From an uncultured virus (IMG/VR IMGVR_UViG_3300035191_000065) (Duplodnaviria; Heunggongvirae; Uroviricota; Caudoviricetes): a DNA stretch of 41,556 nt. Position 1 is the first letter of the stretch, and the number at the start of each line of letters is the position of its first letter. The stretch lies in IMG/VR virus record IMGVR_UViG_3300035191_000065. One strand, written 5' to 3'. Positions 11,616 to 34,937 of this stretch are shown here, piece after piece. The position numbers and the translations under genes are program-made. The notes below the pieces were generated by a model. That model saw only the letters and a list, made by a program, of their open reading frames with translations, did not search any database and was not told where the DNA came from.

Positions 11616-12104
11616 ATGAACATCGAGAATTGCGCCAATGGGAATTGCAGCAACGGCTGGATGTATGCAGCCGGTGGCCTGGTGTTGGGCTTTGTCGGCA
11701 TGACGCTGCTCCAGAAGCGGCGCATGACCTCGAACCCTGGCGGTCAGATCTTCGAGATCGATGGGAACCTCCTCATGGTTCGCAAAGACGGCCTTCCAGA
11801 GGGCATGTACGCTGTCTACGCGATGCGGCCCACCGGAAAGTCAGAGGATCTCATCGGGACCATCGTCAGAGGTACTGGGCGGTCGTTCCGTGCCTTTCCA
11901 CCCGAAAGGTACGACCGTATTCGAGTCACAAGCGACCTGCCCGAGTTCATCCTTTCGAGAGGGACGCTGACGGGAAGCATCTACAAGGCCGTCGCCTACC
12001 TGAACAAGGTGTATCAGCGCGCCTACAAGAGGAGCGCTTCGTATAAGGCTGCCTACAAGCGCCGTCTCGGACGCGAGTTCAGCGAGGCGCTCGGAGCTGC
12101 TTGA
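11616..12104 (+). CDS. N-terminally anchored protein with SNP motif
   Basis: AGGAG before ATG 11616; NG linker, TM, KRRMTSNPGG, then one module resembling the repeats of the previous gene. Confidence 0.75.
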   Translation: MNIENCANGNCSNGWMYAAGGLVLGFVGMTLLQKRRMTSNPGGQIFEIDGNLLMVRKDGLPEGMYAVYAMRPTGKSEDLIGTIVRGTGRSFRAFPPERYDRIRVTSDLPEFILSRGTLTGSIYKAVAYLNKVYQRAYKRSASYKAAYKRRLGREFSEALGAA

Positions 12105-19302: not shown

Positions 19303-19905
19303 ATGTACGAATACAACACCGGAAAAAGTGTTTCGACCAAGCCATACCCTACGGCGCTCGGTGCGCTTGGCGATCGCTACATTCCTTTTAGCGAGACCAG
19401 GCGCGTAGCTCCTTGGGCGATCGCTGAGGTCTCTCTGGAAAACGTCAACTGTCGCTGTTACCACAATGCTCCGCGTGAAGAAGTGCTTCGGTCGTCTGTT
19501 CCGTACACCATGGAGATTTCCGTACCGGGGCACAACTTCATCTGCTCCTGCAATGCTTCAACGGAGTGTCCTCCCGAAGTACATCAGGGGGCACATCAGC
19601 GGGATCCGTGGCGTGAGCGCCGCTGCGCTGAATGGAGAGAGCAGTGGCTACAAGAGGGCGCTGATCTCATCGCGTCTCCGGGGTTCCGTGAGGCCATGAG
19701 CGAGAAGGTTCTTGACGTCGCTGGCATAACCGGTTGGCGAAGGAGGCTTGTCAAGCCGGCCGAGTTTCTTCAGGTCATCGAAGAACGAGAGCGGCGAGAG
19801 CGACCGATCAAGGCGTTTGCGATCATCACCCTTGCTGTTGGTGGAGGCGCCCTGTTCTGGACGTGGCTCCGCAAGCGTAAGAAAGCTCGTGAGGGCGAAG
19901 AATAG
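19303..19905 (+). CDS. C-terminally anchored membrane protein with YEY leader
   Basis: MYEYNTG..ALGALG; CxC motifs; TM followed by RKRKK. Confidence 0.8.
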   Translation: MYEYNTGKSVSTKPYPTALGALGDRYIPFSETRRVAPWAIAEVSLENVNCRCYHNAPREEVLRSSVPYTMEISVPGHNFICSCNASTECPPEVHQGAHQRDPWRERRCAEWREQWLQEGADLIASPGFREAMSEKVLDVAGITGWRRRLVKPAEFLQVIEERERRERPIKAFAIITLAVGGGALFWTWLRKRKKAREGEE

Positions 19906-19916
19906 CGTGAGGTTTT

Positions 19917-19937
19917 CATCCTCAGGACGGTTAGAAT
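19917..19937 (+). promoter_or_regulatory. Palindromic operator next to a -10-like hexamer
   Basis: CATCCTCAGGACG (19917-19929) followed by TAGAAT (19932-19937) in an intergenic gap. No good -35. Confidence 0.45.
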
Positions 19938-19948
19938 AGGTGAGGACG

Positions 19949-20551
19949 ATGAGAAATCAGACACTAAAAGCCAGGGCCATCAGCCGGAGTGACCGAAGCG
20001 CGTTCATGCAGCCTGTCCCCGAGCCCGCAGACATGCCGGCGATCTATCAGCCAGCTCTCAAGGAATTGGGCCTCGGAACGAACGGCAATGGGGATAACGG
20101 AAACTACGGCTGGCTGCCGCTTGGTGTCCTTGTCGCCATTGGCGTTGGGGCCTACTTCATCCACCGGTCCAGCAAGCGCGACGAGGAGTATGCCGAGTAC
20201 GCTCGCCGAGGGTGGACAGAGAACCGGGGGCGTAGGGCAAGCGGGACTGGAGAAGACGGCCTTCCGGATTTCGCCCCTGCCACTGTGAAGACCGTGTTCC
20301 GGAAGATGATGCAAAGTGCGATTCGACAGCAAGATGAACACGGAACCGGCCCATGGTCCATCTATTGGAGCAAGGGAAAGGACGGCGAATGGGCCGTCGG
20401 CGACAACTTCGACATAAAAGGATTTCTCGTTCTGAAGCCAGACGGCAGGTGGTACTACCGTTGGCACTGGGGTGATCGAAGGTTCAAAAGCAGCGGCGCT
20501 GCGTATAGGCGAGCGGCTCGATTCTTCGATGACATCGGGGAATACATGTAA
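19949..20551 (+). CDS. Single-TM protein with C-terminal aromatic/basic domain
   Basis: ELGLGTNGNGDNG, TM, TENRGRR, then a Trp-rich domain. Confidence 0.75.
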   Translation: MRNQTLKARAISRSDRSAFMQPVPEPADMPAIYQPALKELGLGTNGNGDNGNYGWLPLGVLVAIGVGAYFIHRSSKRDEEYAEYARRGWTENRGRRASGTGEDGLPDFAPATVKTVFRKMMQSAIRQQDEHGTGPWSIYWSKGKDGEWAVGDNFDIKGFLVLKPDGRWYYRWHWGDRRFKSSGAAYRRAARFFDDIGEYM

Positions 20552-20576
20552 TCCCGATTAAGGGAAGGGTGTAGAA

Positions 20577-20984
20577 ATGTCTCAGTACGTGCGAAGGACA
20601 TACGGACCCGGCGACATCGCCGCGCTTCCACCAACGATCGGACTGACGAGCCGGGAACCGACAATCGGTGCTGAGGACGTCGGCCGACCTATCAAGCCAG
20701 CTTTCCCGTTCAAGCCGATGCATCCGAAGGCTGGAGCACCGGTTCGACAGGCTGGGCTGTTTGGGATGGGCCTGGATTACCAGGTCTTTCCAACGGTTTA
20801 CTGTGGAGGTGCACCTGCCGGATCAGGCAATCGTGGAGCCGGTGCTGGCATGGGAACCAATGGCAGCGGAAACGGAAACGGAAACGGTGGTTGGATGCTC
20901 CCCGTGGGCGTCGGTCTGGCCATCGGAATCGGTCTCGCCTACATGCTGCGAAAGCGCGAGGAAGAGGCCGAGCTGGCTTTCTAG
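20577..20984 (+). CDS. Small Gly-rich membrane protein (paralog of 21012..21359)
   Basis: MSQYVRRTYGPG..PTIG; two GMG motifs; NG repeat; C-terminal TM; GGTGTAGAA before ATG. Confidence 0.8.
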   Translation: MSQYVRRTYGPGDIAALPPTIGLTSREPTIGAEDVGRPIKPAFPFKPMHPKAGAPVRQAGLFGMGLDYQVFPTVYCGGAPAGSGNRGAGAGMGTNGSGNGNGNGGWMLPVGVGLAIGIGLAYMLRKREEEAELAF

Positions 20985-21011
20985 GCCAGCAGGAATCAGG
21001 AGAGGTAGAAA

Positions 21012-21359
21012 ATGTCTCAGTACATCATGAAGTCTTACGGCCCCGGAAGCATCGGTGCGCTCATCCCGGGCGCAGCGCTCTCACATCCGCCGACGATCGG
21101 CTCGAACGATCCCATCAGGGATATCGGCTCAGCCGTTCACGGTGCGTCCAGGATTCCAGCGGCTCCGACGGGTCGCGTTCCCTCGATGGGGGGCTGCGGC
21201 TGTGGAATGGGTGTGGACAACGGCGTCTTCTCGAACGGCGACGGCGTGTTCAGCGGCATGGGAACGGCCAACGGCAACGGCAGCATGATGCCGTTCCTCG
21301 GTCTCATTCTCGCACCGGTCGCGGCGGTCGGCATCGTGTGGGGACTCTCCAAGCTCTAG
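21012..21359 (+). CDS. Small Gly-rich membrane protein
   Basis: MSQYIMKSYGPG..PTIG; GCGCGMG; FSGMG; C-terminal TM; GAGGTAGAAA before ATG. Confidence 0.8.
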   Translation: MSQYIMKSYGPGSIGALIPGAALSHPPTIGSNDPIRDIGSAVHGASRIPAAPTGRVPSMGGCGCGMGVDNGVFSNGDGVFSGMGTANGNGSMMPFLGLILAPVAAVGIVWGLSKL

Positions 21360-21368
21360 GAGGGTTCC

Positions 21369-21797
21369 ATGTACGAGTCGAACAGGTCGGGCGCTGGCTG
21401 CCTGGGCTGTGAGGAGAGCGGTCTCGGCGTAATCGGAATGATAGGCCGGCGTCTCGAAGGTGGTGCCGCGCTGGCGGCTCATGCATCGCAGCTCATGCAG
21501 GAGAACCCGCAAGGGTTCCAGGTGATGGCCGAGGCCCTTACTGCAGCTTCAGAGCAGCAGAAAGAGCAGCGACGACAAGAACACCTGGCGCGGCAAGAAG
21601 CTCAGCAGGCCGCGGATCAGGCTGAATGGGAGTCTGGTCGCCAGGCGACGCAAGAGCGACTAATGCGTCAACAGGCCGAGGCAGAGCAGCGAACTGGGAT
21701 GATCGTCATGGGGATTGGCGGTGTCGTCCTCCTCTCTCTGGTTGGCGGCGGTATTTGGTGGCTCGTCAAGAGAAGGCGAGCCGCGGAGGAGGAGTGA
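21369..21797 (+). CDS. Small membrane protein with GCLGC leader
   Basis: MYESNRSGAGCLGCEESGLG; Gln-rich helix; TM ending GGGIWWLVKRRR. Confidence 0.8.
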   Translation: MYESNRSGAGCLGCEESGLGVIGMIGRRLEGGAALAAHASQLMQENPQGFQVMAEALTAASEQQKEQRRQEHLARQEAQQAADQAEWESGRQATQERLMRQQAEAEQRTGMIVMGIGGVVLLSLVGGGIWWLVKRRRAAEEE

Positions 21798-22078
21798 TGT
21801 ACGAGTACAACCCTCACGGAATGGGAAGCGAGCCCGTTCTTCTCAACATCGGGCCACAGATTTCATCGATCGATCCGGAATTCGCTGCTCAGCAACAGGC
21901 GGCTCGTGCTGCTGCCGAGGCTGGAGAGGAAGACATCCCTCACCCGGAGCCTGGTGGTTTCGAGCATGAGGAGGGGCTCCCGTGGTGGGTTTGGGGCGTC
22001 GGAGGCGTGGCAATACTCGGGGCCATCGGTGGTGGTGTCTGGTGGTGGATGAAACGCGGCGAATCCGAGGAGGAGTAG
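21797..22078 (+). CDS. Small membrane protein with YEY leader
   Basis: MYEYNPHGMG; SIDP; PWWVWGVGG..GGGVWWWMKRGESEEE. Confidence 0.8.
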   Translation: MYEYNPHGMGSEPVLLNIGPQISSIDPEFAAQQQAARAAAEAGEEDIPHPEPGGFEHEEGLPWWVWGVGGVAILGAIGGGVWWWMKRGESEEE

Positions 22079-22081
22079 GCC

Positions 22082-22369
22082 ATGTATCAGGCAAGCACAT
22101 CAGGAACAGGTTGTCTTGGGTGCGGCCTGGGTACAGAGGATGATTCCTCGGGCCAAATGATGAGGATCGTGAGTATCGATCCTTCGGCCATTCGGTTCGC
22201 GTTGGCCGCTCGTCAGGGTGAAGTTACAGGCCTGCCAACAAATGGCCAGGTGAGTGCTCCTCCTGGGATGCCTTGGTGGGTTTGGGGCGTTGCTGGTGTT
22301 GGGCTGCTTGGTTTCATTGGCGCAGGCGTCTGGTGGTATCTGCGGCCGAGCGAAGAGGCAGCGGAGTAA
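22082..22369 (+). CDS. Small membrane protein with GCLGC leader
   Basis: MYQASTSGTGCLGCGLG; SIDP; PGMPWWVWGVAGV TM. Confidence 0.8.
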   Translation: MYQASTSGTGCLGCGLGTEDDSSGQMMRIVSIDPSAIRFALAARQGEVTGLPTNGQVSAPPGMPWWVWGVAGVGLLGFIGAGVWWYLRPSEEAAE

Positions 22370-22390
22370 CCGCGGTAGAAAAGGGTTTTC

Positions 22391-22747
22391 ATGTATCAGC
22401 AGAGCACAGCAGGGGCCGGGTGTCTTGGGTGCGGCCTTGGGTCAGTTATCGCATCGGTCCAAGATCGGGGGGGTATCAGCACTGTAGGTCCAGGGACTCT
22501 TCAGGCGACGAGCTTGATTTCGAGCCCCGGCGTTCGCGGCGTAATACAAGCCATCGAAAGAGGCGACATCGTGCTCCCCGATCCCGAGCAGCAGAGCACA
22601 ACAGATACTTACGCCCTTGATGAGCCAGGAGCCCCAGGGATGCCAATGTGGGTCTACGGTGTAGCTGGCGTTGGTATTCTCACACTCGTTGGCGGAGGCA
22701 TTTGGTGGCTCATCAAGCGTGGCGAGGGCGAAGAGTCCGAGGAGTAG
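22391..22747 (+). CDS. Small membrane protein with GCLGC leader
   Basis: MYQQSTAGAGCLGCGLG; PGMPMWVYGVAGV..GGGIWWLIKRGE. Confidence 0.8.
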   Translation: MYQQSTAGAGCLGCGLGSVIASVQDRGGISTVGPGTLQATSLISSPGVRGVIQAIERGDIVLPDPEQQSTTDTYALDEPGAPGMPMWVYGVAGVGILTLVGGGIWWLIKRGEGEESEE

Positions 22748-22760
22748 GTGGGGAGGATCG

Positions 22761-23147
22761 ATGTACGAATACATGACAGGACTTGGTACTGATGACGTCA
22801 GGCCGATGGGGGTCATGCCAGACGGAAGAACGATTCCTCCTGTCCATGAGTGGGACTGGGCGATCCCCGCGGATGCGAGGTTCCGCGGGATTCAGGTCCC
22901 TGAGACAGAGGAAGAGCGCGAAGCTTTTATGGCGCAGATCGAGGCTGGTCTGGTGCCTGAGGGAGTCTGGGTCAACCCACACTTCCGACAGTGGGGCCGA
23001 CGGCCCGAAGAGGGAGAGCCAGGTCACACGGTCGAGCCCGGCCCAGATCCTGAGAGCGGTGCTTACTGGGTCAAGATCGGGATCGTGTCTGTTGGGATCG
23101 TCGCTCTTATCGGCGGCATCGCTCTGTTCACAACAGCAGGGAAGTGA
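22761..23147 (+). CDS. Small membrane protein with YEYMTGLG leader
   Basis: GGAGG before ATG 22761; MYEYMTGLG; C-terminal TM. Confidence 0.8.
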   Translation: MYEYMTGLGTDDVRPMGVMPDGRTIPPVHEWDWAIPADARFRGIQVPETEEEREAFMAQIEAGLVPEGVWVNPHFRQWGRRPEEGEPGHTVEPGPDPESGAYWVKIGIVSVGIVALIGGIALFTTAGK

Positions 23148-23150
23148 TTC

Positions 23151-23414
23151 ATGCAGAGCCCTGACGCCAATATGCCGAACCAGATGCCGCTCTCAGACCC
23201 GGCGACGCTCGAACCGTTCGTGGAGCAATACGCTGTCGTCATAGGTCAGCAAGAGGCGGCGCTGCATCAGCATCCGGCGCAGGCAGTCGCAAATCAAGAG
23301 CTGGCCCGGGTGCGAGAAAGCCAGCGCCCGTGGTACGTGCGGAGACGATGCGATCTCGTGGCGTGGGGAGCCATCACGGGGATGGTCATCGGCTACATCC
23401 TGAGGTCGAGATGA
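23151..23414 (+). CDS. Small C-terminally anchored protein
   Basis: Fills the gap exactly; RPWY..LVAWGAITGMVIGYIL followed by RSR. Confidence 0.7.
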   Translation: MQSPDANMPNQMPLSDPATLEPFVEQYAVVIGQQEAALHQHPAQAVANQELARVRESQRPWYVRRRCDLVAWGAITGMVIGYILRSR

Positions 23415-23938
23415 CCCCGGTCATTGAAGTCGAATGTGAGGGACGCCCCATTCGTATCCGGCTGACGCCTGAGGGTCCTGAGTTTCTCAACTACGATATT
23501 GAGCACGACATCACGCTCGTCGAGATGGGTTACGACCCGACGGAGTGCTACACGCTGTGGCATCAGCTCGTTAACGAGCCTTATTCTTTCTACAGAGACA
23601 ACGGGTTTCTTCCAGAAAGTATGGAGGCCTCTTACGCTGTTCTAACGGTTTCAATCGAAAGCATAAAACCGTCGAATCGGTTTACGCTCGAAAGAGAAGA
23701 GAACGACCGTAAAGCGCTGAACTATGACACCTGGTTTGAGGTGCAAACAATTCAAAGAGGGTATCTCGTAAGTATCCCAGATGAAGATGGATTCTTTGAA
23801 GAGCTTCGAGGGGTAAGGAAGAAAGTTGGTTACAGCAAGAAGCTGATAGATATTTGTGCATACGCCGTGTCGATAGGTGTTTTTGTGGTGGAGTTCGCTG
23901 ATGACGCACCTGCGTTGACGGTGTCCGGTAGCTGGTAA
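23411..23938 (+). CDS. LxEMGY-module protein 1
   Basis: ATGA overlap; IEVECEG..YDIEHDITLVEMGYDPTEC. Confidence 0.8.
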   Translation: MTPVIEVECEGRPIRIRLTPEGPEFLNYDIEHDITLVEMGYDPTECYTLWHQLVNEPYSFYRDNGFLPESMEASYAVLTVSIESIKPSNRFTLEREENDRKALNYDTWFEVQTIQRGYLVSIPDEDGFFEELRGVRKKVGYSKKLIDICAYAVSIGVFVVEFADDAPALTVSGSW

Positions 23939-23940
23939 CC

Positions 23941-24480
23941 ATGTGGAAGATGCGCGCCATAGAGTTCGAGTGTGACGGAAAGACTGTTCTGGTACGTCCT
24001 GGAGAAGACGGCGAGCCAGAGTTCCTCGATTACGACCTTGATCACGATGTGACGCTCGCAGAGATGGGGTATCCAGCAAGCGAGTGCCTTCAGCTTTATC
24101 GCAAGTGGTCGATAAACCCCTACTCCTTCTGCGTCGAAATGGGGCTGTTGCCACCTGCCTTCGACTTTACGCGTCCGATGCTCGTTGTACCGCGGCGTAA
24201 TCTCCCGAAGATGATAAACAGAACCGTCACTCGCATCGGTAACGCGAGCGGTCCCGACGCCAACTGGTACGATCACTACTTCGAGGGTTGGGTAAATGGA
24301 GTCGTCTTTGAGATTCCGCTCGAACCGGGGGCGCGCGAGCAGCTCTACGAAGATGCTGAGCTGGACGAGTATTTCCCTGACATCGTTGATTTTGCCATCT
24401 CGAACGAGATCGAACTCATCAACTTCATGGACCCGGTAGCCGAGCTGCTCCCAGGCTTCCCGGAGTTTGAGCAGTATTAA
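23941..24480 (+). CDS. LxEMGY-module protein 2
   Basis: IEFECDG..YDLDHDVTLAEMGYPASEC; shares PYSF and a [IV]D.[CF]A-type tail with protein 1. Confidence 0.8.
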   Translation: MWKMRAIEFECDGKTVLVRPGEDGEPEFLDYDLDHDVTLAEMGYPASECLQLYRKWSINPYSFCVEMGLLPPAFDFTRPMLVVPRRNLPKMINRTVTRIGNASGPDANWYDHYFEGWVNGVVFEIPLEPGAREQLYEDAELDEYFPDIVDFAISNEIELINFMDPVAELLPGFPEFEQY

Positions 24481-24491
24481 CCGGAGGACTC

Positions 24492-26072
24492 ATGTACGAG
24501 TACAACACAAAAGGTCGACAGCCGCTGGGTCTCATAAACCTGTCGCGTGCTCAGATCTTCAGCCAGGGCCTTGGCGCGATTCAGCCCTCAGAGGCTCAGC
24601 TCTTCAGCGGCATGGGAGCCATCCAGCCCTCCGAAGCTCAGCTCTTTGACGGGATGGGGGCTATCCAGCCCTCCGGTGCGAAGGTGTATCGATTTGGACC
24701 TGGAATCGTCCAGAGGACGAGGTCTCAGCTCGTTGGGAGCTGCGATCCATCGATCGAAGAATGCTGCGTCGGATGTCAGAACTCGGCTCTCTCTAACGTC
24801 GGAGTCGAGGAAAGGACAGGACACTCCTGGCTGTTCTGGGTTGGAATCGGCCTTGGTGTGGGCGGTGCGCTCTACTTGCTTACAAAAAGCGGCATCTTCG
24901 AAAACCCCAGGGACGTCACCGATTCCGAGGCGGCTCAGCAGGCCGCTGCACTCGCAGTGCAGGCAGGGCTTCCCACCATCCTTTGGGGGCCTCCTGGAAT
25001 AGGGAAGTCGAGCTGGCTGGAAGCCCTCGGCGAAGCGATGAACGCCGAGGTCTTTACGGTCATCGGCTCAACCAAGGATCCAGCCGACATTGGCGGCATC
25101 ATGAATCTCGAAGGCAGAACGATCCCGCCCATGTGGGCTCAGAAGATTCGCAAGCGTTCGGACCAGCGAAAGCGCTCGGTTCTGTTCCTGGACGAGTTCA
25201 CGAGCATGAGCCCGCTCGTGCACGCCGCGCTGCTTCGAGTCGTTCGGGAAAAGATCGCCGGAGAGCTGAACTTCGACCCCACTGACAGGTATGTCTCAGT
25301 TGTCGCCGCCGCGAACGCCCCCGAGGAAGGTGCAGGCTCGATGGAGCTTCCTCCTCCGGCCGCTAACCGGCTCATTCATATCAAGTGGGTGCCGCCTTCT
25401 GTTGTGGAGTGGGGAGTGGGGCTTCTTTCTTCGGAGTGGCCAAAGCCTCAGCTCCCGGCACTCCCGAGAGACTGGAAGAGGACTCGTGAGGCTGTCAGCG
25501 CAGAGGAAGACGTCGCGGCTTTCGTCGCCTATCAGCAGAGGTACATGCTGGAACTGCCTGCGACATCGGCAGCAAGAGGCGAGGCATGGCCGAGCCCCAG
25601 GAGCTGGGAGATGGCTGCGGACGCTCTGGGCGCCGCCCGAGTCGTCAACGCTCCTCCCCAGGTCATCTTCAAGCTTGTCTCTGGTGCGGTCGGGATGCTG
25701 CCAGCCAAGAAGTTCTTCGATTGGCTCAACGACCGAGACGCTGTTGATGGACGAGACATTCTCGCAGCTCCCAAGAAATATGAGGTGCAGCTAGGTCGTC
25801 CTGACGTCCTCTATGCCGCCGCAAACGCTGTCGTAAACGAGGTCAAGAAGTCGCCGTCGCGGGATGCCTGGGAGCGGGCTTGGGAGTTCATGGAGCACGC
25901 CAGGGCGAAGTCTGACAGGCCAGAGGTGCTGGCGCTCGCGGCCGACAGGCTGATGGCCTTGACCAAAGACAAGCGCTTCGTGGCAGCCATCAAGGACGCG
26001 GAGATTCCCGAAGACGAAATGCTCGATGAGTATCGCGTCGAGGGTGTTCGAGTCTTCGGAGGTCTACGATGA
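24492..26072 (+). CDS. Membrane-anchored MoxR/AAA_5-type AAA+ ATPase A
   Basis: Walker A GPPGIGKS, Walker B VLFLDEF, sensor I AAAN, Arg finger PPPAANR, PSPRSWE. N-terminal MYEY leader, repeats, TM and ENP. Confidence 0.9.
   Translation: MYEYNTKGRQPLGLINLSRAQIFSQGLGAIQPSEAQLFSGMGAIQPSEAQLFDGMGAIQPSGAKVYRFGPGIVQRTRSQLVGSCDPSIEECCVGCQNSALSNVGVEERTGHSWLFWVGIGLGVGGALYLLTKSGIFENPRDVTDSEAAQQAAALAVQAGLPTILWGPPGIGKSSWLEALGEAMNAEVFTVIGSTKDPADIGGIMNLEGRTIPPMWAQKIRKRSDQRKRSVLFLDEFTSMSPLVHAALLRVVREKIAGELNFDPTDRYVSVVAAANAPEEGAGSMELPPPAANRLIHIKWVPPSVVEWGVGLLSSEWPKPQLPALPRDWKRTREAVSAEEDVAAFVAYQQRYMLELPATSAARGEAWPSPRSWEMAADALGAARVVNAPPQVIFKLVSGAVGMLPAKKFFDWLNDRDAVDGRDILAAPKKYEVQLGRPDVLYAAANAVVNEVKKSPSRDAWERAWEFMEHARAKSDRPEVLALAADRLMALTKDKRFVAAIKDAEIPEDEMLDEYRVEGVRVFGGLR
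24549..24675 (+). repeat. About three imperfect 42-bp tandem repeats encoding AQLFxGMGAIQPS
   Basis: AQIFSQGLGAIQPS-EAQLFSGMGAIQPS-EAQLFDGMGAIQPS. Confidence 0.85.
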
Positions 26073-27532
26073 ACTATCGAGACGACAACGATGATGGGCG
26101 CTACGTAGCAGTTCGCCCTCCGCTCACTGCCCAGCAGGTCATACCCCCGCAGATGGGGGCTATCGTACCCATATACGACGACGACTCTCCGATTGCGAGC
26201 TGCGCAGGGTGTAGTAACCTCGGAACAGAAAATCCTGAGGACGGACAATTTGCTGGACGCCCCTGGTGGTTTTGGGTTGGGATCGGCGTTGGTGTTGGAG
26301 CCGGCATCTACTTCGTCAAGCGCTCCCGTATTCTTCGCAATCCCGATGAGCTGAGTGAGGCTCAGATCGCACAGCAGGCTGCTGCAATCGCCGTCCAGTC
26401 CGGTGTCCCAACCATCTTGTGGGGCGCTCCTGGTATCGGTAAAACGACCTGGCTGGAAGCTCTCGGCGAAGCGATGGATGCCGAGGTCTTCACCGTTATT
26501 GGCTCGACGAAAGACCCGGCAGACATCGGCGGCATCATGAAGCTCGATGGCTCGCTGGTCCCACCAGTTTGGGCTCAGGAGATCAGGGCCAGGGCCGATC
26601 AGGGTAAGCGCTCGGTTCTGTTCCTGGACGAGTTCACGAGCATGAGCCCACTCGTTCATGCCGCTATGCTGCGGGTGGTGCGCGAGAAGATCGCTGGGGA
26701 GCTGAACTTCGATCCGAAGAGCGGGCCGCTCCGTGGAGAGGCATGCAGTGTCGTCGCCGCCGCGAATCCGTCTGGAGAGGGTGCTGGAGCCATCGACTTG
26801 CCGCCGCCAGCGGCAAACCGGATGCTCCACATCAAGTGGCCAGAGCCCTCTGGGATCATCTGGGGTCTCGGTCTGATGCTCGGGTGGGCCAGGCCTCGCT
26901 TGTTCTCACTTCCGAAGGACTGGCGAAAGACTTCAGAGGCCATGAGCGCCAAGGAGGATATTGCGGCCTTCCTTCGTCGTCGTGAAGAGCTTTTCATGAT
27001 GATGCCGAAGACGCAGACAGAGCGCGGCCTTGCGTGGCCGAGCCCGCGAACCTGGGACATGGCGGCAGAAGCCCTCGGGGCAGGACGTGCTGTCTGGGCT
27101 CCGATGGACGTTCAGGCGCTGCTTGTCAAGGGGTGCGTGGGTGAAGGTCCAGGCGGCGAGTTCATGAACTGGATCAAGGAGAGAGACCTGCCAGACGCAG
27201 AAGAGGTCATGCTCGATCCAACCATCTGGGACGTGAAGAACGCCCGCAGCGATCAGATCTACGCTGTCGGTCAGTCGCTCGTCGCGGCGGTACAGCGAAA
27301 GCCCTCAGAAGAGCGTTTCCTTCAGGCGTGGGATGTCGTCGGTTACGTCGTCGACGAGACAAACAAGGTCGACGCAATGTTTACGACGGTCCTCGATCTG
27401 ACCAAGATCGCTACGAGTGATCGCTATCCACAGATCAAGGGCACGAAGCCGCCGAGCCGCCTGGTGAAGAAGTTCTTCCCCATGATGAAAAAGGTCGGCG
27501 TCTTGAAGGGTCTGGCGAAGAAAAAGAAGTAG
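26069..27532 (+). CDS. Membrane-anchored MoxR/AAA_5-type AAA+ ATPase B
   Basis: GAPGIGKT, VLFLDEF, AAANP, PPPAANR, PSPRTWD. N-terminal CAGCSNLG, TM WWFWVGIGVGVGAGIYFV, RNP. Confidence 0.9.
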   Translation: MNYRDDNDDGRYVAVRPPLTAQQVIPPQMGAIVPIYDDDSPIASCAGCSNLGTENPEDGQFAGRPWWFWVGIGVGVGAGIYFVKRSRILRNPDELSEAQIAQQAAAIAVQSGVPTILWGAPGIGKTTWLEALGEAMDAEVFTVIGSTKDPADIGGIMKLDGSLVPPVWAQEIRARADQGKRSVLFLDEFTSMSPLVHAAMLRVVREKIAGELNFDPKSGPLRGEACSVVAAANPSGEGAGAIDLPPPAANRMLHIKWPEPSGIIWGLGLMLGWARPRLFSLPKDWRKTSEAMSAKEDIAAFLRRREELFMMMPKTQTERGLAWPSPRTWDMAAEALGAGRAVWAPMDVQALLVKGCVGEGPGGEFMNWIKERDLPDAEEVMLDPTIWDVKNARSDQIYAVGQSLVAAVQRKPSEERFLQAWDVVGYVVDETNKVDAMFTTVLDLTKIATSDRYPQIKGTKPPSRLVKKFFPMMKKVGVLKGLAKKKK

Positions 27533-27534
27533 GG

Positions 27535-28275
27535 ATGGCCATTGTCACGGAGATACGCTGCGGAGGTGGAGTACACGAGGTCGAAGTAGACCGCGGTGGA
27601 TTAACCATCTTCGATTTTGACTACGACGAGGAGGCCGTTCTCGTCGAGATGGGTTACTCCGGTAGCCCCTGCTACCAGGCTATCAACTTCTACCCCACCA
27701 AGCCTCTCTACGTCCTCATGATGCTTCAGAGGGGGCTTTGGGCAACGGAAGATTACGGAGTCGGCATTCTCCCATACGAGGCCTGGGTGCAGCTAGGGAT
27801 TGACTATGTCCATCACATCGATTGGGTATTCTCTGAACGCGGGCAGCAGCAGCACTTTGAAATGTTCGCGGAGGCTGAGCACCCCTGGTTTTACAGTGCC
27901 GTGAGAGCGGTAGAGGGTTCGCTGGAGGGTCGTTTTACAACGATGATGCTCGACAAGGTTCGGAAAAACCTTCGAGATCAAGGGCTGTATGTCGGTCATC
28001 CACCTGCTGCGTACCACGCCAATAAAAGTGCCGTTCAGCTCATCAACGCTGCAGAGTGGCTCGTTGCCATCTCGCTACCAAAGGTTCGGGCAAAGGCCGA
28101 AAAGAACTTTTTCAAGTACATCTTCGAGGTCAGCTCGCAAGCACAAGAGGCCGTGAGGAACAAGGCCATTCAGGAGAACGAAGATCCTGACAAGGCGGAG
28201 ATGGAAGAGAAGAAGTGGCAGCTCGATCACACGCTCGACTTCATCGAGCGATACCATGAGGAGACGTCACCATGA
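27535..28275 (+). CDS. LxEMGY-module protein 3 (helical C-domain)
   Basis: EIRCGG..EEAVLVEMGYSGSPC; tail EKKWQLDHTL. Confidence 0.85.
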   Translation: MAIVTEIRCGGGVHEVEVDRGGLTIFDFDYDEEAVLVEMGYSGSPCYQAINFYPTKPLYVLMMLQRGLWATEDYGVGILPYEAWVQLGIDYVHHIDWVFSERGQQQHFEMFAEAEHPWFYSAVRAVEGSLEGRFTTMMLDKVRKNLRDQGLYVGHPPAAYHANKSAVQLINAAEWLVAISLPKVRAKAEKNFFKYIFEVSSQAQEAVRNKAIQENEDPDKAEMEEKKWQLDHTLDFIERYHEETSP

Positions 28276-30005
28276 CGATTCGAATGATCAACCCAGGAAG
28301 GCCTCGAAGGGGGCGAAACCCTGGTGACCCATATGAGCTGGTGCGGGCAGCGCGCCTTTTTCTGCTCAGGGCATCGCAGCGGCCCTATCTCGCGACAGCA
28401 GCGATGACGCTTCGCATGGTGCACGACAAAAGCATCCCGACAGCGGCTGTCGATTCGAGCTGGCGGATGTACTTCAACGATGAGTTTTTGGACAGGGCAG
28501 GTGTCGAAGCTGGCGCGGCTGTCATGGAGCATGAGCTGTGGCACCTGCTCCGTCGTCACGGAGAGCGCGCCCGAAAACTGAACGTGCCCCGCGATCTGGC
28601 GAAGGTCTGGAACTTCGCGGCAGACGCGGAGATCCATTCTGACGATACGCTCGTGAAACGGCTCAAAGAGATTCCTGGATTCGAGCCGATCACTCCAGAG
28701 AGCTTCAACTTCGAAAAGGGGCTGCTGGCGGAGGAGTATTACGAAATGCTCCTCGAAGCTCCAAAGGGCGATGTCTTCGGTGAGACGCCTGACGGCGACG
28801 TCAAGGTGTACAAGCGAACCATCATCAAGGTGAAGAAGCCTGGGAAAGAACCGCCTCCCGAGCCGCCGCAAGAAGGAGAAGAAGACGAGCCGCCGCCAGT
28901 TGGTCCTCCGCCGGATCCGGTTATTGTCTATGAGTACGAAGAACCCTGGACAGGAGAGCGGCCTCCAGGGACGAAACCTCCTTATGTCATTTACGATCCT
29001 CGCCTGCCTCAAGAAGGAGAAGAAGGCGTAGGAGAGAGAGGTCAGCCGGTAGAGGGCGAAGGTGATTTCGAAGAAGGCGAAGGTGAAGGCGAAGGCGAAG
29101 GTAAGAGCGCTGAAGACAAGTACGACGAGGGAGAGCAGGTCGAGCAGGGGCAGACCACAGGTGGTGAGCCTAGCTCCACGCCGCATGTCGGAGAGGGCGA
29201 TTGTGGTTCATCCGCAACTGGTATCCCGGCTCCCTGGGAGGATGAGCCCGACGACTTCGTTGATCGATCGCAAGAGGACTTCATCCGAAAAAAAACGGCC
29301 GACAAGGTCATCGAGGAGTCAGCTACGGGTCGTGGAACGGGCGTGGGCTCGACAATAGTTCAGTGGGCCGAAGAAGAGCTTTCGCCATCTGCGGTGAATT
29401 GGCAGCAGCAGCTCCGAAGCGCTGTCTCGAACGCTATCAACTTTGTGGCAGGTTCTTTCGAGTTCTCTCGCCGTCGCGTGAGCCGGCGCCAATGGCACCA
29501 GAAAGACATTCTACTCCCAGGCCTCGTTCACCCTGTGCCTGAGGTGGCAATCATCATCGATGTCTCCGCCTCGATGTTCGCCGCGTTCAACGATGGCAGC
29601 GCCAAGGCGAAGGGGAATTACACGCTCCTCGAACAGGCGATGGGAGAAGTTGCAGAAATTGTCAGGCAGTTCGGTTCGACGATAGGTGTCAGTGTCTTCG
29701 CGACGGACACGACGGTCTCGTGGACTGGTCGGATTTTTAACCCGTCTGACATTCAGAAGTATCTGAGTGAGGCAAAGATCGGCGGCGGAACAGACCTGAC
29801 AGTTGGGATGAACGCTGCCTATCATTCGCAGCCCCGCCCGAACATCATGGTAGTCCTGACGGACGGTGGCACTCTCTGGCCCGACTCTCCGCCGCCCAAC
29901 ATGCGGGTTGTTATCGGTATCGTCGGAAGCGATGAGGCGCAGATGGAGAGGTGGGGCGGAATACCACCGTTCGGTGATGTCATCTACATCACCTCTGGCA
30001 AGTGA
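28272..30005 (+). CDS. DUF2201-type putative metallopeptidase with vWA domain (MoxR partner)
   Basis: PTAAVD..HELWHLLRRH (HExxH)..WNFAADAEI; Pro/Glu/Gly-rich linker; DCGSSATG; MIDAS DVSAS, GGGTD, VLTDG. Confidence 0.9.
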   Translation: MTIRMINPGRPRRGRNPGDPYELVRAARLFLLRASQRPYLATAAMTLRMVHDKSIPTAAVDSSWRMYFNDEFLDRAGVEAGAAVMEHELWHLLRRHGERARKLNVPRDLAKVWNFAADAEIHSDDTLVKRLKEIPGFEPITPESFNFEKGLLAEEYYEMLLEAPKGDVFGETPDGDVKVYKRTIIKVKKPGKEPPPEPPQEGEEDEPPPVGPPPDPVIVYEYEEPWTGERPPGTKPPYVIYDPRLPQEGEEGVGERGQPVEGEGDFEEGEGEGEGEGKSAEDKYDEGEQVEQGQTTGGEPSSTPHVGEGDCGSSATGIPAPWEDEPDDFVDRSQEDFIRKKTADKVIEESATGRGTGVGSTIVQWAEEELSPSAVNWQQQLRSAVSNAINFVAGSFEFSRRRVSRRQWHQKDILLPGLVHPVPEVAIIIDVSASMFAAFNDGSAKAKGNYTLLEQAMGEVAEIVRQFGSTIGVSVFATDTTVSWTGRIFNPSDIQKYLSEAKIGGGTDLTVGMNAAYHSQPRPNIMVVLTDGGTLWPDSPPPNMRVVIGIVGSDEAQMERWGGIPPFGDVIYITSGK

Positions 30006-30742
30006 GCGATGGGGGTGAACTCGTGTCCTTCGTACTTGCTGCCCGATGCGACGACCAAATCGTCGATGCCCAAGTCGACGATGACGGCGATTTGACCCTC
30101 GACTACGACCTCGAAGAAGACATCGCGCTCGAAGAGATGGGGTATCCAGCGTCGGACTGCCTTAGTCTCGTCCGAGAGTTCGAGGATGAGCCCGTCAAGG
30201 CTCTTCTCAGTAATGAGGCGTTGCTCATTCCTGAGGCGGATAGGGTGCTGTTGGCGATTGGCATAGCGGACCATGCGATCGAGAGATTCGGGAGGTATCA
30301 CGGAAAAGACTATTTTTCGGACTCTCCTGAAAAAAGACTCGCTTTGAGAGACATCATTATGATGTCCGGAAATATAACGAGGGCTTCACAGGCTTATCGC
30401 TTGCTTGAAAGAGCAAGGGGGGAGGTAAAACTCGCCGAGCATCGCAAGGATGTTTCTGAAGCAGACAAGGCTTTCAGAATCGCCTACAGCGATGAGCTGA
30501 TCGCCACTGCCGTCCGAGAGGCGATGAAGGCTCTTCATGCTCACCTCTACGGACATACACAGCTCGCCGGGCCAGCTCCCGTGCTTGTGCGGAAGTTTTC
30601 GCAGGACACAGCGTCTTATACAAGGCAGTCAGCGACGCAGCAGGGTATGGCTGAGCGAGACCAGAAAGCTTACGGCAACGAGTACCAATGGCAGCTCGAC
30701 TACATTCTCGACTATTTTTCTGACCAGGAGGATGAGGAATGA
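30002..30742 (+). CDS. LxEMGY-module protein 4 (helical C-domain)
   Basis: GTGA overlap; DYDLEEDIALEEMGYPASDC; tail EYQWQLDYIL. Confidence 0.85.
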   Translation: MSDGGELVSFVLAARCDDQIVDAQVDDDGDLTLDYDLEEDIALEEMGYPASDCLSLVREFEDEPVKALLSNEALLIPEADRVLLAIGIADHAIERFGRYHGKDYFSDSPEKRLALRDIIMMSGNITRASQAYRLLERARGEVKLAEHRKDVSEADKAFRIAYSDELIATAVREAMKALHAHLYGHTQLAGPAPVLVRKFSQDTASYTRQSATQQGMAERDQKAYGNEYQWQLDYILDYFSDQEDEE

Positions 30743-31503
30743 GTATCTTCCTGCAGCTCCCCTGCGAAGAGGATGGTCTCGCCACCATCGAAATTACGAG
30801 CGATGGTGAGATGGTTTTTGTCGACTACGACATCGAGCAAGATGTTGTCCTTGAAGAGATGGGCTACGAGACGCCTCTGTGCCTTGAAATACTGAGGGAG
30901 TGGGAGAGGGCGCCGATCGATTTTCTCTGTCGCTCTGACATCATTCCGACAAACCTCCTCGGCTTCGTCACCTGTCAATGGGCTGCCGAGGCATTAGCGC
31001 GAAACGAGGCGTTGCTCAACCAGAGCATCGGATGCGTCAAGCAAATGAAATCTCTCCTCGGAGCGTGTCGACGTTTTTGGTCCGCGAAGAGGGGAATGCC
31101 GCTCAAGCGAGTCTACTCGGCGAAACAGCAGGTATTTGATTGCTGGAACGCCTATGTCAACAAGAGGCGAGAGAGCTTTGCGGGGTCGAACTGGCGCCCA
31201 CCTTTTGCAGGTGAGAGGACGCTCGATGCAGTTCTCGGTTGTGCATCGGTGATTGCCGAGTATGTCAACGAGATCGAAATGGTGGGCGGTCTTCAAACTC
31301 CGCTACAGCTCCCCTGCGAGGTGGCAAAAGCAGCAATGCAATCCATAGTCATCCACTATCCAACGGTCGCATCGCATCGCCACCCATTTGAATCAGATCA
31401 CAAAATATTCACCGAGTCAGTCTGGATGATCCAGGAGGAGATCGATGAGGTGAATCAGAAGCTGGCGCTCGCAGCGCTCAGGGTTCTCGAAAGGCACGGC
31501 TGA
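30739..31503 (+). CDS. LxEMGY-module protein 5
   Basis: LPCEEDG..DYDIEQDVVLEEMGYETPLC. Confidence 0.85.
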   Translation: MSIFLQLPCEEDGLATIEITSDGEMVFVDYDIEQDVVLEEMGYETPLCLEILREWERAPIDFLCRSDIIPTNLLGFVTCQWAAEALARNEALLNQSIGCVKQMKSLLGACRRFWSAKRGMPLKRVYSAKQQVFDCWNAYVNKRRESFAGSNWRPPFAGERTLDAVLGCASVIAEYVNEIEMVGGLQTPLQLPCEVAKAAMQSIVIHYPTVASHRHPFESDHKIFTESVWMIQEEIDEVNQKLALAALRVLERHG

Positions 31504-32348
31504 TGGGCATTCTGCTGAAGATAGAGTGCGACGGCGAGATTCAGAACGTGGAGGTGACAGGATCTGGAGACCTCGTCTTTGAGGAGTTCGACATCGAAGA
31601 CGCGCTTGTTCTCGTCGAGATGGGTTACGAGCCTGACCTCTGTGCAAAAACCTATCTCAAGTGGCAGACCAATCCGTTTAAAACACTGTTCGCGCTATTC
31701 AGGTGGGAGGACAACGAATACTGGACGTCGGGGCCTTGGTACGACATCAAGGCAGAAACCGGCTTCATTTGGGTGAAGCGAGCGCTCACCATTCTCAAGA
31801 AGATCGGAAGCCCACCGTTTGTCGTCGCGCACCCAATAGCCTCTTACTTCCGCGGTGGCGAAGATGAGCCGGATTACTACCAGGTCGACCCAGTGGAGTG
31901 GGTTGAGGGGCTCAAGGAGATCTACGGAGAGCTGTACGATTTCGATCCAGACCTCGGAACCGACGACAGAAAGGCGAAGAGAGACCTCGAAAAGCACAAC
32001 AGGTTTATGGGGCGCGCGGTCAGCGACGCAAACTTTGAGCAATCAGAGAAGAACGATATTCCTTGGAAGACGGACTACTCACGCTACCCACAATTTGTCC
32101 TCAAGGCCAGGTTCTATGCCGCCAGTGCGCTCTTCGCCCTTGGTCAGATGATCAGAAATGACAACGATGCCCGACTCGAAAGAGCACACTCAAATTTCGA
32201 GGAGATCCAGAAGTATATCGGCCTCGCCGCCATCTACGAGGCCGCACTGGACGGAGCCACGAAGTCAGAAGCGGCTGACTTTTCCTATGAGACGCGCCGG
32301 CAGCTCATCGGTCAGTTCGTCCAGGTTCTTGAACGGAGGCATTCATAG
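31503..32348 (+). CDS. LxEMGY-module protein 6
   Basis: IECDG..FDIEDALVLVEMGYEPDLC. Confidence 0.85.
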   Translation: MGILLKIECDGEIQNVEVTGSGDLVFEEFDIEDALVLVEMGYEPDLCAKTYLKWQTNPFKTLFALFRWEDNEYWTSGPWYDIKAETGFIWVKRALTILKKIGSPPFVVAHPIASYFRGGEDEPDYYQVDPVEWVEGLKEIYGELYDFDPDLGTDDRKAKRDLEKHNRFMGRAVSDANFEQSEKNDIPWKTDYSRYPQFVLKARFYAASALFALGQMIRNDNDARLERAHSNFEEIQKYIGLAAIYEAALDGATKSEAADFSYETRRQLIGQFVQVLERRHS

Positions 32349-32350
32349 CC

Positions 32351-33118
32351 ATGGACACCTTCTATCTCCAGGATGGTGATGAGGTCCACAGGGTCGATGT
32401 TGAGGGTGCAAGGGACATCTACGTTTTCGCCGATCATGGAGATGAGGAAATCGCGGAAGACCGAGTCCTGGTCGAGATGGGCTACGAACCAGGGAGCCAG
32501 TGTTCGAGGTTCGTGGGGATGCTTGGCGATCGGCACTTCATTGAGGCGTTTACGACCTCGGAAATCTGGTCTCCGGAGGTCGTCGCGCGTTTCCTGATTG
32601 AGCTGGCGCGTTCCTGGTCAATCCCAGCACTGCCGCCAGAGAACTACACCTTTACTGTCTCCACCTATCGTTCCAAGGGGAGCGGAAGCTTCGATGATTT
32701 CGAGATAACGCCTGAAGTATTTGTTGACAGGTCCGAGTCGTTCCTGGACATGGTGACCAAAGAGCACAGGTATATGGACCCGGATGACGACGAGGACTTC
32801 GATGACCTGCATCACACGATTGCGGCGTACTACGACATCGCTCGTATCCGTGACAATGAGGTGGTGGAGAATAACGCTGTATCGTCCCTGGATTACATGC
32901 TGCGCTGTGTTGGGGATCTTTGGGCTGGGGCCTATAACGTCGAGGCCTTCTACAAAAACGCGAGGCGGTCTATAACCGAAGCTCTTCATGTCGCGCTGTA
33001 TTCCGGTCGTCAGGAAGCGCTGGGGGGTGATGAGTTATCGGTGGCCGTGTTCTTTGTAGTCTCTGATCTCCTTCGCATTACTTCCCGTGTAACCCAAGCG
33101 CATAAGGATGAGCTGTGA
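32351..33118 (+). CDS. LxEMGY-module protein 7
   Basis: AEDRVLVEMGYEPGSQC. Confidence 0.85.
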   Translation: MDTFYLQDGDEVHRVDVEGARDIYVFADHGDEEIAEDRVLVEMGYEPGSQCSRFVGMLGDRHFIEAFTTSEIWSPEVVARFLIELARSWSIPALPPENYTFTVSTYRSKGSGSFDDFEITPEVFVDRSESFLDMVTKEHRYMDPDDDEDFDDLHHTIAAYYDIARIRDNEVVENNAVSSLDYMLRCVGDLWAGAYNVEAFYKNARRSITEALHVALYSGRQEALGGDELSVAVFFVVSDLLRITSRVTQAHKDEL

Positions 33119-34197: not shown

Positions 34198-34199
34198 GC

Positions 34200-34925
34200 A
34201 TGAGCGTGGTCCTTGAAATATTCTGCGACTACGAGGGAAGGTCCAAAGAGTTCGAGATCACTCGCGGCCTCGATATCACCATCCTTGATTTTGATGAGGA
34301 AGAGGCCATTGTCCTCGAAGAGATGGGCTACAATGTCCATCCTTGCCTCAACCTCAAGCGTGTCATGCAAGACCAGCCAGCGGTCCTCGTCATTAACCTC
34401 ATTGATTCTGGGCTCGATGCTGATTTGTTGCTTCGGATTGGAGTGGAGCAATTGGAGCGAGTCATCCCTTGCTGGGCAGCGGTTCATCCAAAGCGCGATG
34501 AGCCCCAGCAAATTATTGGGATGGTTAAGGCTGTTCTAAGCGGCGAACATGTTGACGAGGAAGAGATTGACGAGCTTGAGTCCGATCTCGTCATAGCATG
34601 CGATGATGCGGCGGCAGATGCTTGGAGACGAGGATCCAAAGACGACGATAGGGCAGCGAAAGCGGCCTGTAACGCGGCACTCGACCTCATCAGAATGGCC
34701 CGTCTTTTTCATATTCGCCCCTGGTATTTTCCTCGCGGCGCACAGTCAAAATATGAGAGGCGCATAAAGGATGTACTGGGAAAGTGTGTCGGGGCAGTTC
34801 AGGAAAAGGCTGATTTTCAGGGTAAAGATCGAACGAAAGCAGGGACTAGAGAAAACGCCTGGCAGGCGAGCCGGCTCATCGAGCTGCTCGAAGAGCAGCA
34901 ACTGGAAGAAGATTTTTCTGACTGA
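34200..34925 (+). CDS. LxEMGY-module protein 9 (Imm5-like helical C-domain)
   Basis: DFDEEEAIVLEEMGYNVHPC; ERVIPCWAAVHPKRDEPQQII..AVLSG; Ala-rich helices; ENAWQASRLIELL. Confidence 0.8.
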   Translation: MSVVLEIFCDYEGRSKEFEITRGLDITILDFDEEEAIVLEEMGYNVHPCLNLKRVMQDQPAVLVINLIDSGLDADLLLRIGVEQLERVIPCWAAVHPKRDEPQQIIGMVKAVLSGEHVDEEEIDELESDLVIACDDAAADAWRRGSKDDDRAAKAACNAALDLIRMARLFHIRPWYFPRGAQSKYERRIKDVLGKCVGAVQEKADFQGKDRTKAGTRENAWQASRLIELLEEQQLEEDFSD

Positions 34926-34937
34926 GGGAGAAGAACC

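Follow-up and report, generated by a model that had tools for sequence, protein, structure and literature searches.

The IMG/VR record IMGVR_UViG_3300035191_000065 is a 41.5-kb stretch of DNA from an uncultured virus, referred to here as the window, and its co-directional genes lie tightly packed on the + strand. Two adjacent genes encode AAA+ ATPases of the MoxR type, called ATPase A and ATPase B, or the "first" and the "second" paralogue. Both carry an N-terminal extension with a conserved helix resembling a transmembrane (TM) segment, which is predicted to anchor them in a membrane. A gene for a protein with a metallopeptidase-like and a VWA domain lies nearby. The features of these genes are the following (aa, amino acids; KD, Kyte–Doolittle hydropathy):

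24492..26072, + strand: ATPase A ("first" paralogue), 526 aa, with a MYEY leader, CxxC, a TM-like helix, NP and a MoxR-like AAA+ domain.
24582..24675, + strand: 42-bp tandem repeat in the ATPase A leader, 2.2 copies, encoding the repeated GMGAIQPSEAQLF, a portion of the GMG repeats (score of 132 in Tandem Repeats Finder).
24828..24908, + strand: hydrophobic helix of ATPase A (aa 113-131) and juxtamembrane KSGIFENP (NP at aa 138-139), KD 1.62.
26069..27532, + strand: ATPase B ("second" paralogue), 487 aa, with CAGC, a TM-like helix, RNP, a MoxR-like AAA+ domain and a Lys-rich C-terminus.
26264..26344, + strand: hydrophobic helix of ATPase B (aa 66-83) and KRSRILRNP (NP at aa 91-92), KD 1.35.
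28272..30005, + strand: protein with a DUF2201_N metallopeptidase-like and a VWA domain (PF13203 E 4.4e-25, PF09967 E 1.9e-11; DUF2201 and VWA_2 also matched).

The arrangement of these genes is operon-like. The stop codon of ATPase A shares bases with the start of ATPase B in an ATGA overlap, the gene at 27535-28275 lies directly downstream of ATPase B, and the start of the VWA gene overlaps its end. The extension is about 140 aa long in ATPase A and about 95 aa in ATPase B. In ATPase A, the leader starts with MYEYNT, contains GLG/GMG motifs and carries CCVGC at aa 91-95, followed by the uncharged helix WLFWVGIGLGVGGALYLLT at aa 113-131 and ENP at aa 137-139. ATPase B has no MYEY start, which its orthologue in the related locus L127 retains; it carries a MGAIVP motif, CAGC at aa 44-47, the helix WWFWVGIGVGVGAGIYFV at aa 66-83 and RNP at aa 90-92, with four lysine or arginine residues (K/R) within the 15 residues after the helix and one within the 15 before it. 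Every feature listed by an earlier sequence-only reading of this DNA is present in the translations.

The catalytic domains belong to a recognisable family. Both ATPases exceed the Pfam AAA_5 cut-off of 22 bits (36.3 bits for ATPase A, 31.0 bits for ATPase B), do not reach that of AAA_3 (27 bits; 22.2 and 24.0 bits) and match the "ATPase" family phrog_1297 (E 1.7e-42 and 9.2e-43, respectively). With bpMoxR (PF20030, cut-off 27 bits), ATPase A stays below the cut-off at 18.4 bits (E 0.0012) and ATPase B gives no match; a precomputed bpMoxR domain is annotated on many short relatives. Walker A lies at aa 166 in ATPase A and at aa 119 in ATPase B. In an alignment of 35 sequences, composed of long and short forms and including ATPase B and three short forms, the residues G166, P168, G169, G171, K172, D234, E235, N275, R293 and R370 (ATPase A numbering) are invariant. 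Walker A, Walker B, the sensor 1 asparagine, the ANR arginine and the SPRSW arginine thus show no variation. With the catalytic role of each residue assigned from its position, both ATPases appear to retain intact Walker A, Walker B, sensor 1, arginine finger and sensor 2, which bears out the claim of the sequence-only reading that Walker A/B and the arginine finger are intact in both. The C-termini of the two copies differ: "second" copies retain the ancestral F.P.L..AG and gain a Lys-rich tail, and "first" copies finish with ..VEG[VI].V[FY]G.

In the AlphaFold2 (AF2) model of ATPase A, made from a 32-row alignment, aa 1-107 are disordered, with a predicted local distance difference test (pLDDT) score below 50. 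A helix follows at aa 113-132, where pLDDT is about 64, and the ATPase at aa 144-516 is modelled confidently. Foldseek placed RavA (6q7l_W, E 7.7e-6) first and CHU_0153 (2r44, E 9.4e-6) second, with NorQ entries, including 9qh8/9qhg, at ranks 8, 12, 23, 29 and 37. The TM-scores are low (0.32-0.48), the remaining AAA+ clades follow close behind, and the identity to RavA, CHU_0153 and NorQ is 17-19%. A profile search of PDB sequences with the ATPases gave only P-loop-level matches (midasin, AFG2).

The extensions might be artefacts of over-long open reading frame (ORF) calls, with the real starts just before the ATPase domain, as soluble relatives begin about 20 aa before Walker A. This explanation is scarcely credible. 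Both upstream ATGs are preceded by GGAGG, 4 nt away in ATPase A and 6 nt away in ATPase B; ATPase A has no in-frame methionine from the helix to Walker A; its stop codon overlaps the ATG of ATPase B; and the extension is conserved as protein across the clade, down to 36-38% identity. Together, the GGAGG sequences and the recurrence of the helix module in 57 of 62 related long proteins show that the extension is coding sequence. The true starts thus fall upstream of the helix, as the sequence-only reading had assumed.

The long proteins come from a search of 5.8 billion proteins, the best 120 matches of which contain 63 long forms, one being ATPase B itself. These long forms measure about 450-577 aa, or are fragments of such proteins; next come 58 short forms of about 355-380 aa. 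The module, composed of WW.W, 18-19 uncharged residues, [KR], three to eight further residues and NP, is found in the 57 mentioned above of the 62 distinct long forms and at every long-form metagenome locus that has the N-terminus on the contig. The five long forms without it comprise three N-terminal truncations or fragments and two proteins with variant helices that the search expression does not match. Among the short forms listed, Walker A lies at residues 17-43 in 55 of 58, and the other three are fragments without a detectable Walker A.

Within the module, G120, N138 and P139 are invariant in 32 aligned long forms, and P112, W113 and W114 are nearly so. The mean pairwise identity is 0.27 in the leader, 0.41 at the Cys motif, 0.47 in the TM segment, 0.54 at the juxtamembrane NP, 0.65 in the AAA+ core and 0.35 in the lid/C-terminal domain. 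The TM segment and NP are therefore under stronger constraint than a third of the enzyme, which argues for specific helix packing and not for a passive anchor; a mere spacer would not be expected to show such conservation. The 15 residues after the helix contain on average 2.67 K/R, compared with 1.19 in the 15 before it, and the C-terminal side is the richer one in 44 of 57 proteins. This bias fits a topology with the N-terminus outside and the C-terminus inside.

The anchored form is rare. On viral contigs, a hydrophobic extension was found at none of 80 loci with homologues of 25-33% identity, where the frame before Walker A spans at most 82 codons and the highest upstream hydropathy is 0.78. 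None of 43 genome loci among the matches listed has one either (highest KD 1.07). A scan of genome contigs with the ATPase alignment A2 gave no long form among the matches listed; on viral contigs, the same alignment found only short forms of at most 33% identity, and a scan with P0001 by itself gave no relative. A profile of the module (63 positions, from CxxC through the TM segment to NP), searched against 1.84 billion cluster representatives at E ≤ 0.001, matched 15 proteins. Nine of them are these ATPases and one more is a truncated ATPase fragment. The others include an AAA-less derivative, a Gly-rich protein of 320 aa whose TM-NP module lies close to the C-terminus, and a pair of repeat proteins, of which P0136 is apparently unrelated and P0132 has 14 matched stretches. 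A further match, P0134, is encoded in the window itself and is also the sole significant non-ATPase match of a profile of the ATPase extension among the 610 six-frame ORFs of the window (E 4.4e-4):

11616..12104, + strand: 162-aa protein with an N-terminal CxxxxC-TM-NP module (hmmsearch E 4.4e-4), found again as P0134 among the 1.84 billion representatives.

The AAA-less derivative, P0133 (160 aa), has a DGIF-type leader, a TM helix and NP joined straight to the ATPase C-terminal lid, without the AAA+ core. This protein is a natural truncation, or else an anchored adaptor in its own right.

The sequence-only reading had taken it as established that MoxR partners of DUF2201-VWA proteins are normally soluble, and had named a common occurrence of TM-anchored forms in the family as an observation that would refute it. 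Within the loci and proteins compared above, the soluble relatives lack the extension and anchored forms are uncommon. The full text accessible to a literature search contained no description of a TM-anchored MoxR. Relative to the soluble members of the family, an anchored, tandem-duplicated MoxR architecture confined to one clade thus appears to be new.

The conserved segment could serve a purpose other than anchoring. It may not span the membrane at all, acting instead in glycine-zipper-type oligomerisation or particle targeting, or the extension as a whole may be a propeptide from which cleavage close to NP, for which the DUF2201_N domain is a candidate, frees a soluble ATPase. Its marginal hydropathy, a conservation unusually high for a plain anchor, the invariant NP directly after it and the disordered, repeat-bearing N-terminal tail would all suit such a role, as would the presence in the operon of a metallopeptidase-like domain with an intact HExxH. 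On the other side, no cleavage motif is known for DUF2201_N, and the segment has the look of a TM helix, with 18-19 uncharged residues, an aromatic belt on the N-terminal side and Y/W plus K/R on the C-terminal side. Together with the positive-inside bias (44/57) and the fact that the same module heads proteins that otherwise look cytosolic and basic, such as that at 11616-12104, this makes a non-spanning or cleaved segment improbable.

Twelve related metagenome loci (L127-L138, of which L128 and L129 are near-identical) were recovered. Their conserved gene order runs from genes of the 10321 and 11592 types through DUF5661 and genes of the 14314, 16335/17840 and 19297 types to small membrane proteins, and continues with one or two ATPases, a 27535-like gene, the DUF2201/VWA gene, the paralogue array and a gene of the 33115 type. 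Tandem ATPases are present in the window and in L127, L128/L129, L130, L132 and L136. A single ATPase, with both flanks visible, is present in L134 and L135, and L131, L133, L137 and L138 stop at a contig edge. A quick IQ-TREE run was made on 77 rows (68 distinct), from which the duplicate P0012 had been removed, along with all rows lacking a Walker A, database entries under 330 aa and those locus rows, L130b and L132a among them, that had fewer than 300 aa left after trimming. In this tree, the long forms are monophyletic with respect to five short outgroups, with a support of 100 in the Shimodaira–Hasegawa-like approximate likelihood ratio test (SH-aLRT). The "first" copies (window, L127, L129, L130) form a clade with support 99 and the "second" copies (window, L127, L129, L132) one with support 93. 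Single-copy forms fall outside both (support 98), and the L136 pair sits on a separate early branch. The tandem pair thus results from an old duplication, and the placement in the tree implies that the anchor predates this duplication and that both copies were kept. The hetero-hexamer suggested by the sequence-only reading would be compatible with an ancient, retained tandem duplication.

The VWA protein at 28272-30005 is the expected partner of the MoxR ATPases. It has HELWH at aa 87 and the sequence DVSAS of a MIDAS (an adhesion site that depends on a metal ion) at aa 430, and HExxH and DxSxS are kept in all orthologues examined (L127, L128, L131/L133, L134, L135). Between the two domains, at about aa 175-340, lies an acidic, Pro/Gly/Glu-rich low-complexity insert of variable length, which is replaced by a Cys-rich repeat in the L134 orthologue. 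In L131 (1681-3518) and L133 (1324-3161), DUF2201_N with HExxH and VWA with DxSxS are two ORFs overlapping by 4 bases, which implies that the two halves of the partner can exist as separate genes. A complex prediction for the full VWA protein with the product of 27535-28275, run without controls, scored 0.00 in both runs.

Upstream of the ATPases, the window encodes many small membrane proteins, in particular the following array:

19303..23414, + strand: array of small single-pass membrane proteins ("block 2"), many with MYEY/MYQ starts, GLG or CLGCGLG, Gly-rich WW.W helices and [KR]-then-acidic C-termini.

According to the sequence-only reading, the ATPases share the leader of block 2. This holds at the level of motifs (MYEY, GLG, PWW.W..G.G). 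An M[x]YE[YF] start is found in seven + strand genes of the window, each of which also has a hydrophobic or Gly-rich WFW segment. The sequence ATGTAYGARTAY occurs five times in the window, each time at the start of a + strand gene, with none expected from 100 shuffles. The strict motif PWW.W..G.G is found in four of the 610 six-frame ORFs, namely both ATPases and the genes at 22082 and 22391, all real + strand genes. At the level of homology the claim is not supported, as the ATPase-extension profile reaches the small membrane proteins only with non-significant E values of 0.16-8.8. The leader is therefore best described as a set of shared short motifs with no demonstrable homology.

A [KR]-rich juxtamembrane stretch and an acidic C-terminus (KRGESEEE, KRRRAAEEE, KRKKAREGEE) are present in 8 of 19 upstream single-pass proteins, and in a ninth, at 5167, they lie just after the helix. 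By inference, these acidic tails would be plausible ligands of the MIDAS of the VWA protein.

Between 2830 and 23414, at least 19 membrane proteins are encoded in a row. Seven of them have the M[x]YE[YF] start, mostly with G[LM]G after it, and the acidic ends of the eight proteins mentioned above are of the types ..EEE, ..SEE and ..DEE. They have no classical signal peptide and several have large Cys-rich N-terminal parts, which makes their topology puzzling. At 10321-12487, three consecutive proteins begin with an N-terminal TM helix, closely followed by RRNP, TSNP or TSPEAN, and continue into a soluble, mostly basic domain, which in one case is DUF5661 (E 2.6e-18). This layout matches that of the ATPases and suggests a shared anchoring module in the element.

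These observations lead to the following model, which is held with moderate confidence: the two ATPases form a membrane-tethered MoxR pair, and this pair and the neighbouring DUF2201 metallopeptidase-VWA protein act together on clients in the membrane. The conserved N-terminal single-pass helix would tether both working MoxR-type AAA+ ATPases to the membrane. The disordered, repeat-bearing N-terminal tail and CxxC would lie outside, the helix would span the bilayer, and everything from the basic juxtamembrane stretch through the invariant NP to the ATPase would face the cytoplasm. The anchor was probably gained once, at the base of a small clade known only from metagenomes, and the gene would then have been duplicated in tandem. 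That both copies were retained and that they differ at either terminus suggests their co-assembly into a mixed ring. The tethered ring, probably mixing A and B, may use the cytosolic metallopeptidase-VWA protein as an adaptor and act from the cytoplasmic face to remodel, assemble or process membrane proteins, by analogy with the action of NorQ/NorD on NO reductase. The most likely clients would be the leader-bearing single-pass proteins encoded upstream.

A number of points weigh against this model. The 19-residue KD values (1.62 in ATPase A, 1.35 in ATPase B and 0.8-1.5 in homologues) are borderline relative to the usual TM mark of about 1.6, on a hand-entered scale, and the helix is very Gly-rich. 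The AF2 confidence for the helix of ATPase A is modest, and an N-terminal tail of 65-136 aa must cross the membrane without a signal peptide. The dating of the duplication relies on a quick tree search, and the single ATPase in L134 and L135 implies that the family can do without a mixed ring. The non-significant profile scores of the small membrane proteins belong here as well, and nothing ties the ATPases to any particular client. On balance, the interpretation given by the sequence-only reading stands in part: the starts lie upstream of the helix and anchored forms are uncommon, but the leader is shared as motifs only, and no evidence was found for a physical link by which the ATPases would join block 2 to the second array, whose members look Imm5-like.

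An extended version of the model may be considered, in which a large, uncharacterised virus or mobile element has its own private system for sorting and assembling membrane proteins, recognisable by the MYEY..G[LM]G start, by the Gly-rich WW.W helix and by the TM-NP module. Here, the anchored mixed MoxR ring, with its metallopeptidase-VWA adaptor, would insert, mature or extract at least 15 leader-bearing proteins, and it might read their [KR]-then-acidic cytoplasmic tails through the MIDAS. This version is doubtful.

Among known systems, the closest are the soluble phage and bacterial MoxR + DUF2201 pairs (phrog_1297/phrog_1314; "N4 gp24-like"), which include forms of about 360 aa in Thermoanaerobacter, Actinoplanes and Desulfosporosinus. 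Their ATPases belong to the same family, with 36-41% identity over the ATPase part, and they have the same partner domains and gene order as the window. In contrast to the extended tandem pair described here, they have no N-terminal extension and occur as single copies.

The layout of the window ATPases has parallels elsewhere. FtsH combines an N-terminal TM segment with an AAA+ ring acting on membrane proteins and has its own protease domain in the same chain. FtsH and Bcs1 share with the layout proposed for the window ATPases the N-terminal TM helix or helices, the cytoplasmic or matrix AAA+ ring and the action on membrane proteins (for Bcs1, the accessible part of PMC11143374). Both belong to other AAA+ clades, and the peptidase-like domain of the window is located on the VWA partner, unlike the protease of FtsH.

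NorQ/NorD, CbbQ/CbbO and RavA/ViaA share the MoxR-type AAA+ core and a VWA partner with an intact MIDAS. Their ATPases are soluble homo-hexamers, whereas those of the window are predicted to be anchored, and their VWA partners lack the HExxH domain present in the VWA protein of the window. According to the available text of PMC9976466, the target of NorQD is an integral membrane protein, which it approaches from the cytoplasmic side; one VWA protein plugs the NorQ hexamer, and its MIDAS binds acidic residues of the membrane-bound NorB. A viral pair, p618 (MoxR) and p892 (VWA) of the Acidianus two-tailed virus, has been proposed to act as a chaperone building a viral structure (cited in PMC7911831). 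This pair, likened here by description and not by sequence, is archaeal, and the accessible part of that source reports no TM anchor for it.

The ATPase and VWA genes lie within a second array, whose members surround them. The member between the two is the following:

27535..28275, + strand: Imm5-like protein with an N-terminal "L.EMGY" domain (AF2 pLDDT 88).

In L127 and L128/L129, too, a 27535-like gene separates the ATPases from the VWA gene. Fourteen aligned paralogues, encoded at 23411-41140, have in common an N-terminal domain, about 60 aa long, in which L.EMGY is invariant, and a motif scan adds two more array members (37033-38163, and 41140 to the window end). The N-terminal domain, a beta-hairpin and a helix, is novel, and the C-terminal part is helical and looks Imm5-like. 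In related loci, members of the array family carry ALGF, MLGG or EFGY where those of the window have EMGY, and the idea that the invariant Glu of L.EMGY serves as a MIDAS ligand was dropped for this reason. In BFVD, the best match of the 27535-28275 protein comes from an uncultured phage and bears the name "Imm-5-like domain-containing protein" (E 4e-3; TM-scores 0.50 and 0.58). Its best PDB match, with a probability of 0.99, is 7jtu chain B, from a type VI secretion (T6S) cytidine-deaminase toxin complex, which we take to be the immunity protein. In VIA, 7jtu_B gave Z 11.4 over 162 residues, two DUF416 entries gave 10.8 and 10.5, and the next value was 7.2. Pfam Imm5 matches the protein at 34200-34925 with E 3.7e-4 (21.1 bits, cut-off 25), and Imm5_like matches one of 18 aligned array members (E 3.5e-7).

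This neighbourhood, in which Imm5-like paralogues surround the ATPase and VWA genes, gives the impression of a homogeneous polyimmunity-type array. The available part of PMC3482391 describes Imm5 as protecting against DYW-deaminase and CdiAC toxins and as forming part of polyimmunity proteins. With a real anchor, the module could accordingly be one of defence or counter-defence and not an assembly chaperone, in which the ATPase gates a VWA-linked peptidase effector at the membrane and the Imm5-like paralogues neutralise incoming toxins of the deaminase or nuclease type. The at least 14 paralogues with an Imm5-like fold around the ATPases, the two profile matches to Imm5 and Imm5_like and the association of that family with toxin immunity would suit such a conflict module. 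The vWA-MoxR ternary conflict systems (Kaur et al. 2020, PMC7159879, as far as its text was available) offer a precedent, with a MoxR + vWA core, peptidase domains fused to vWA, diversified neighbouring paralogues and some membrane association. Their effectors are peptidases, though rarely metallopeptidases, and TM segments occur on the vWA component in about 28% of iSTAND systems (PMC7159879, same part). The differences are that the TM segment of these systems lies on the vWA component (PMC7159879, likewise), whereas the TM-like helix of the window lies on MoxR, that bpMoxR remains under its cut-off, and that no STAND or beta-propeller third component was found. In PADLOC-DB 2.0, the best ATPase score (E 5.5e-4 over a 34-residue P-loop stretch) is not meaningful, and the VWA protein and eight further scanned proteins gave no match. 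The MoxR/DUF2201 pair is widespread in phage genomes (83 phage records; phrog_1297, phrog_1314), and the Imm5-like assignment is a helical-bundle match whose Z of 11.4 lies in a range shared with chance arrangements. A conflict function is thus considered rather unlikely, and the membrane-tethered pair acting on membrane clients remains the preferred reading.

The rest of the element offers few homologies. Six of 47 scanned window ORFs match any Pfam family at E ≤ 0.01, and NCBIfam (40 proteins) and PHROGs (36 proteins) gave only ATPase, VWA and glycosyltransferase matches. No tRNA is present in the window, and no PHROG structural gene was detected among the 36 scanned proteins. A tandem pair of paralogues at 16467-19300, about 460-490 aa long and 54% identical to each other, is kept in all related loci that reach this region. 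Each has Gly-rich TM helices close to its two ends and numerous invariant Cys (ECDKYHC, CRTMECM). This 16467/17840 family has no Pfam or PHROG match and no relative in the viral-contig scan; the ESM Atlas gave one match at 0.85 for 16467-17843, which serves as a lead only. Two small paralogues at 20577-21359 (MSQYVRRTYGPGD.. and MSQYIMKSYGPGS..) are Asn/Gly-rich before the TM helix, and the gene calls there are uncertain, because several long alternative-frame ORFs overlap the region. At 337-2797, a weak Sulfotransfer_3 match (E 1.3e-5, 26 bits, cut-off 27) precedes a family-2 glycosyltransferase. Tyrosine sulfation, suggested by the acidic YEY starts, is pure speculation.

The window belongs to a conserved type of element seen only in metagenomes. 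DNA near-identical to it is present in several DNA runs labelled wetland metagenome. Nineteen DNA runs are listed for the window, 11 of which (X1-X11) contain at least 0.2 of its words, and no RNA run is among those listed. Contigs of X3-X6 are near-identical to the window; both extensions are free of variants and indels in them, with eight single-contig differences elsewhere, and the contigs of X3 and X4 span the 42-bp repeat without differences or indels. Two NCBI records of metagenome-assembled genomes label members of the single-copy clade as Planctomycetota. A halophilic origin, suggested by the acidic proteins, was dropped, as the median isoelectric point in the window is 5.5 and only the Imm5-like array is strongly acidic.

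MoxR proteins are among the least understood AAA+ families, and most of them have no known client. A clade presumably wired to the membrane narrows the search for one. The conserved operon with the VWA/metallopeptidase gene, adjoining a block of co-evolving single-pass proteins, points to a membrane protein encoded within a few kilobases as the probable client. The retained tandem paralogues offer a natural test of mixed MoxR rings, and any functional foothold gained in this way would open up the unknown gene set of the element.

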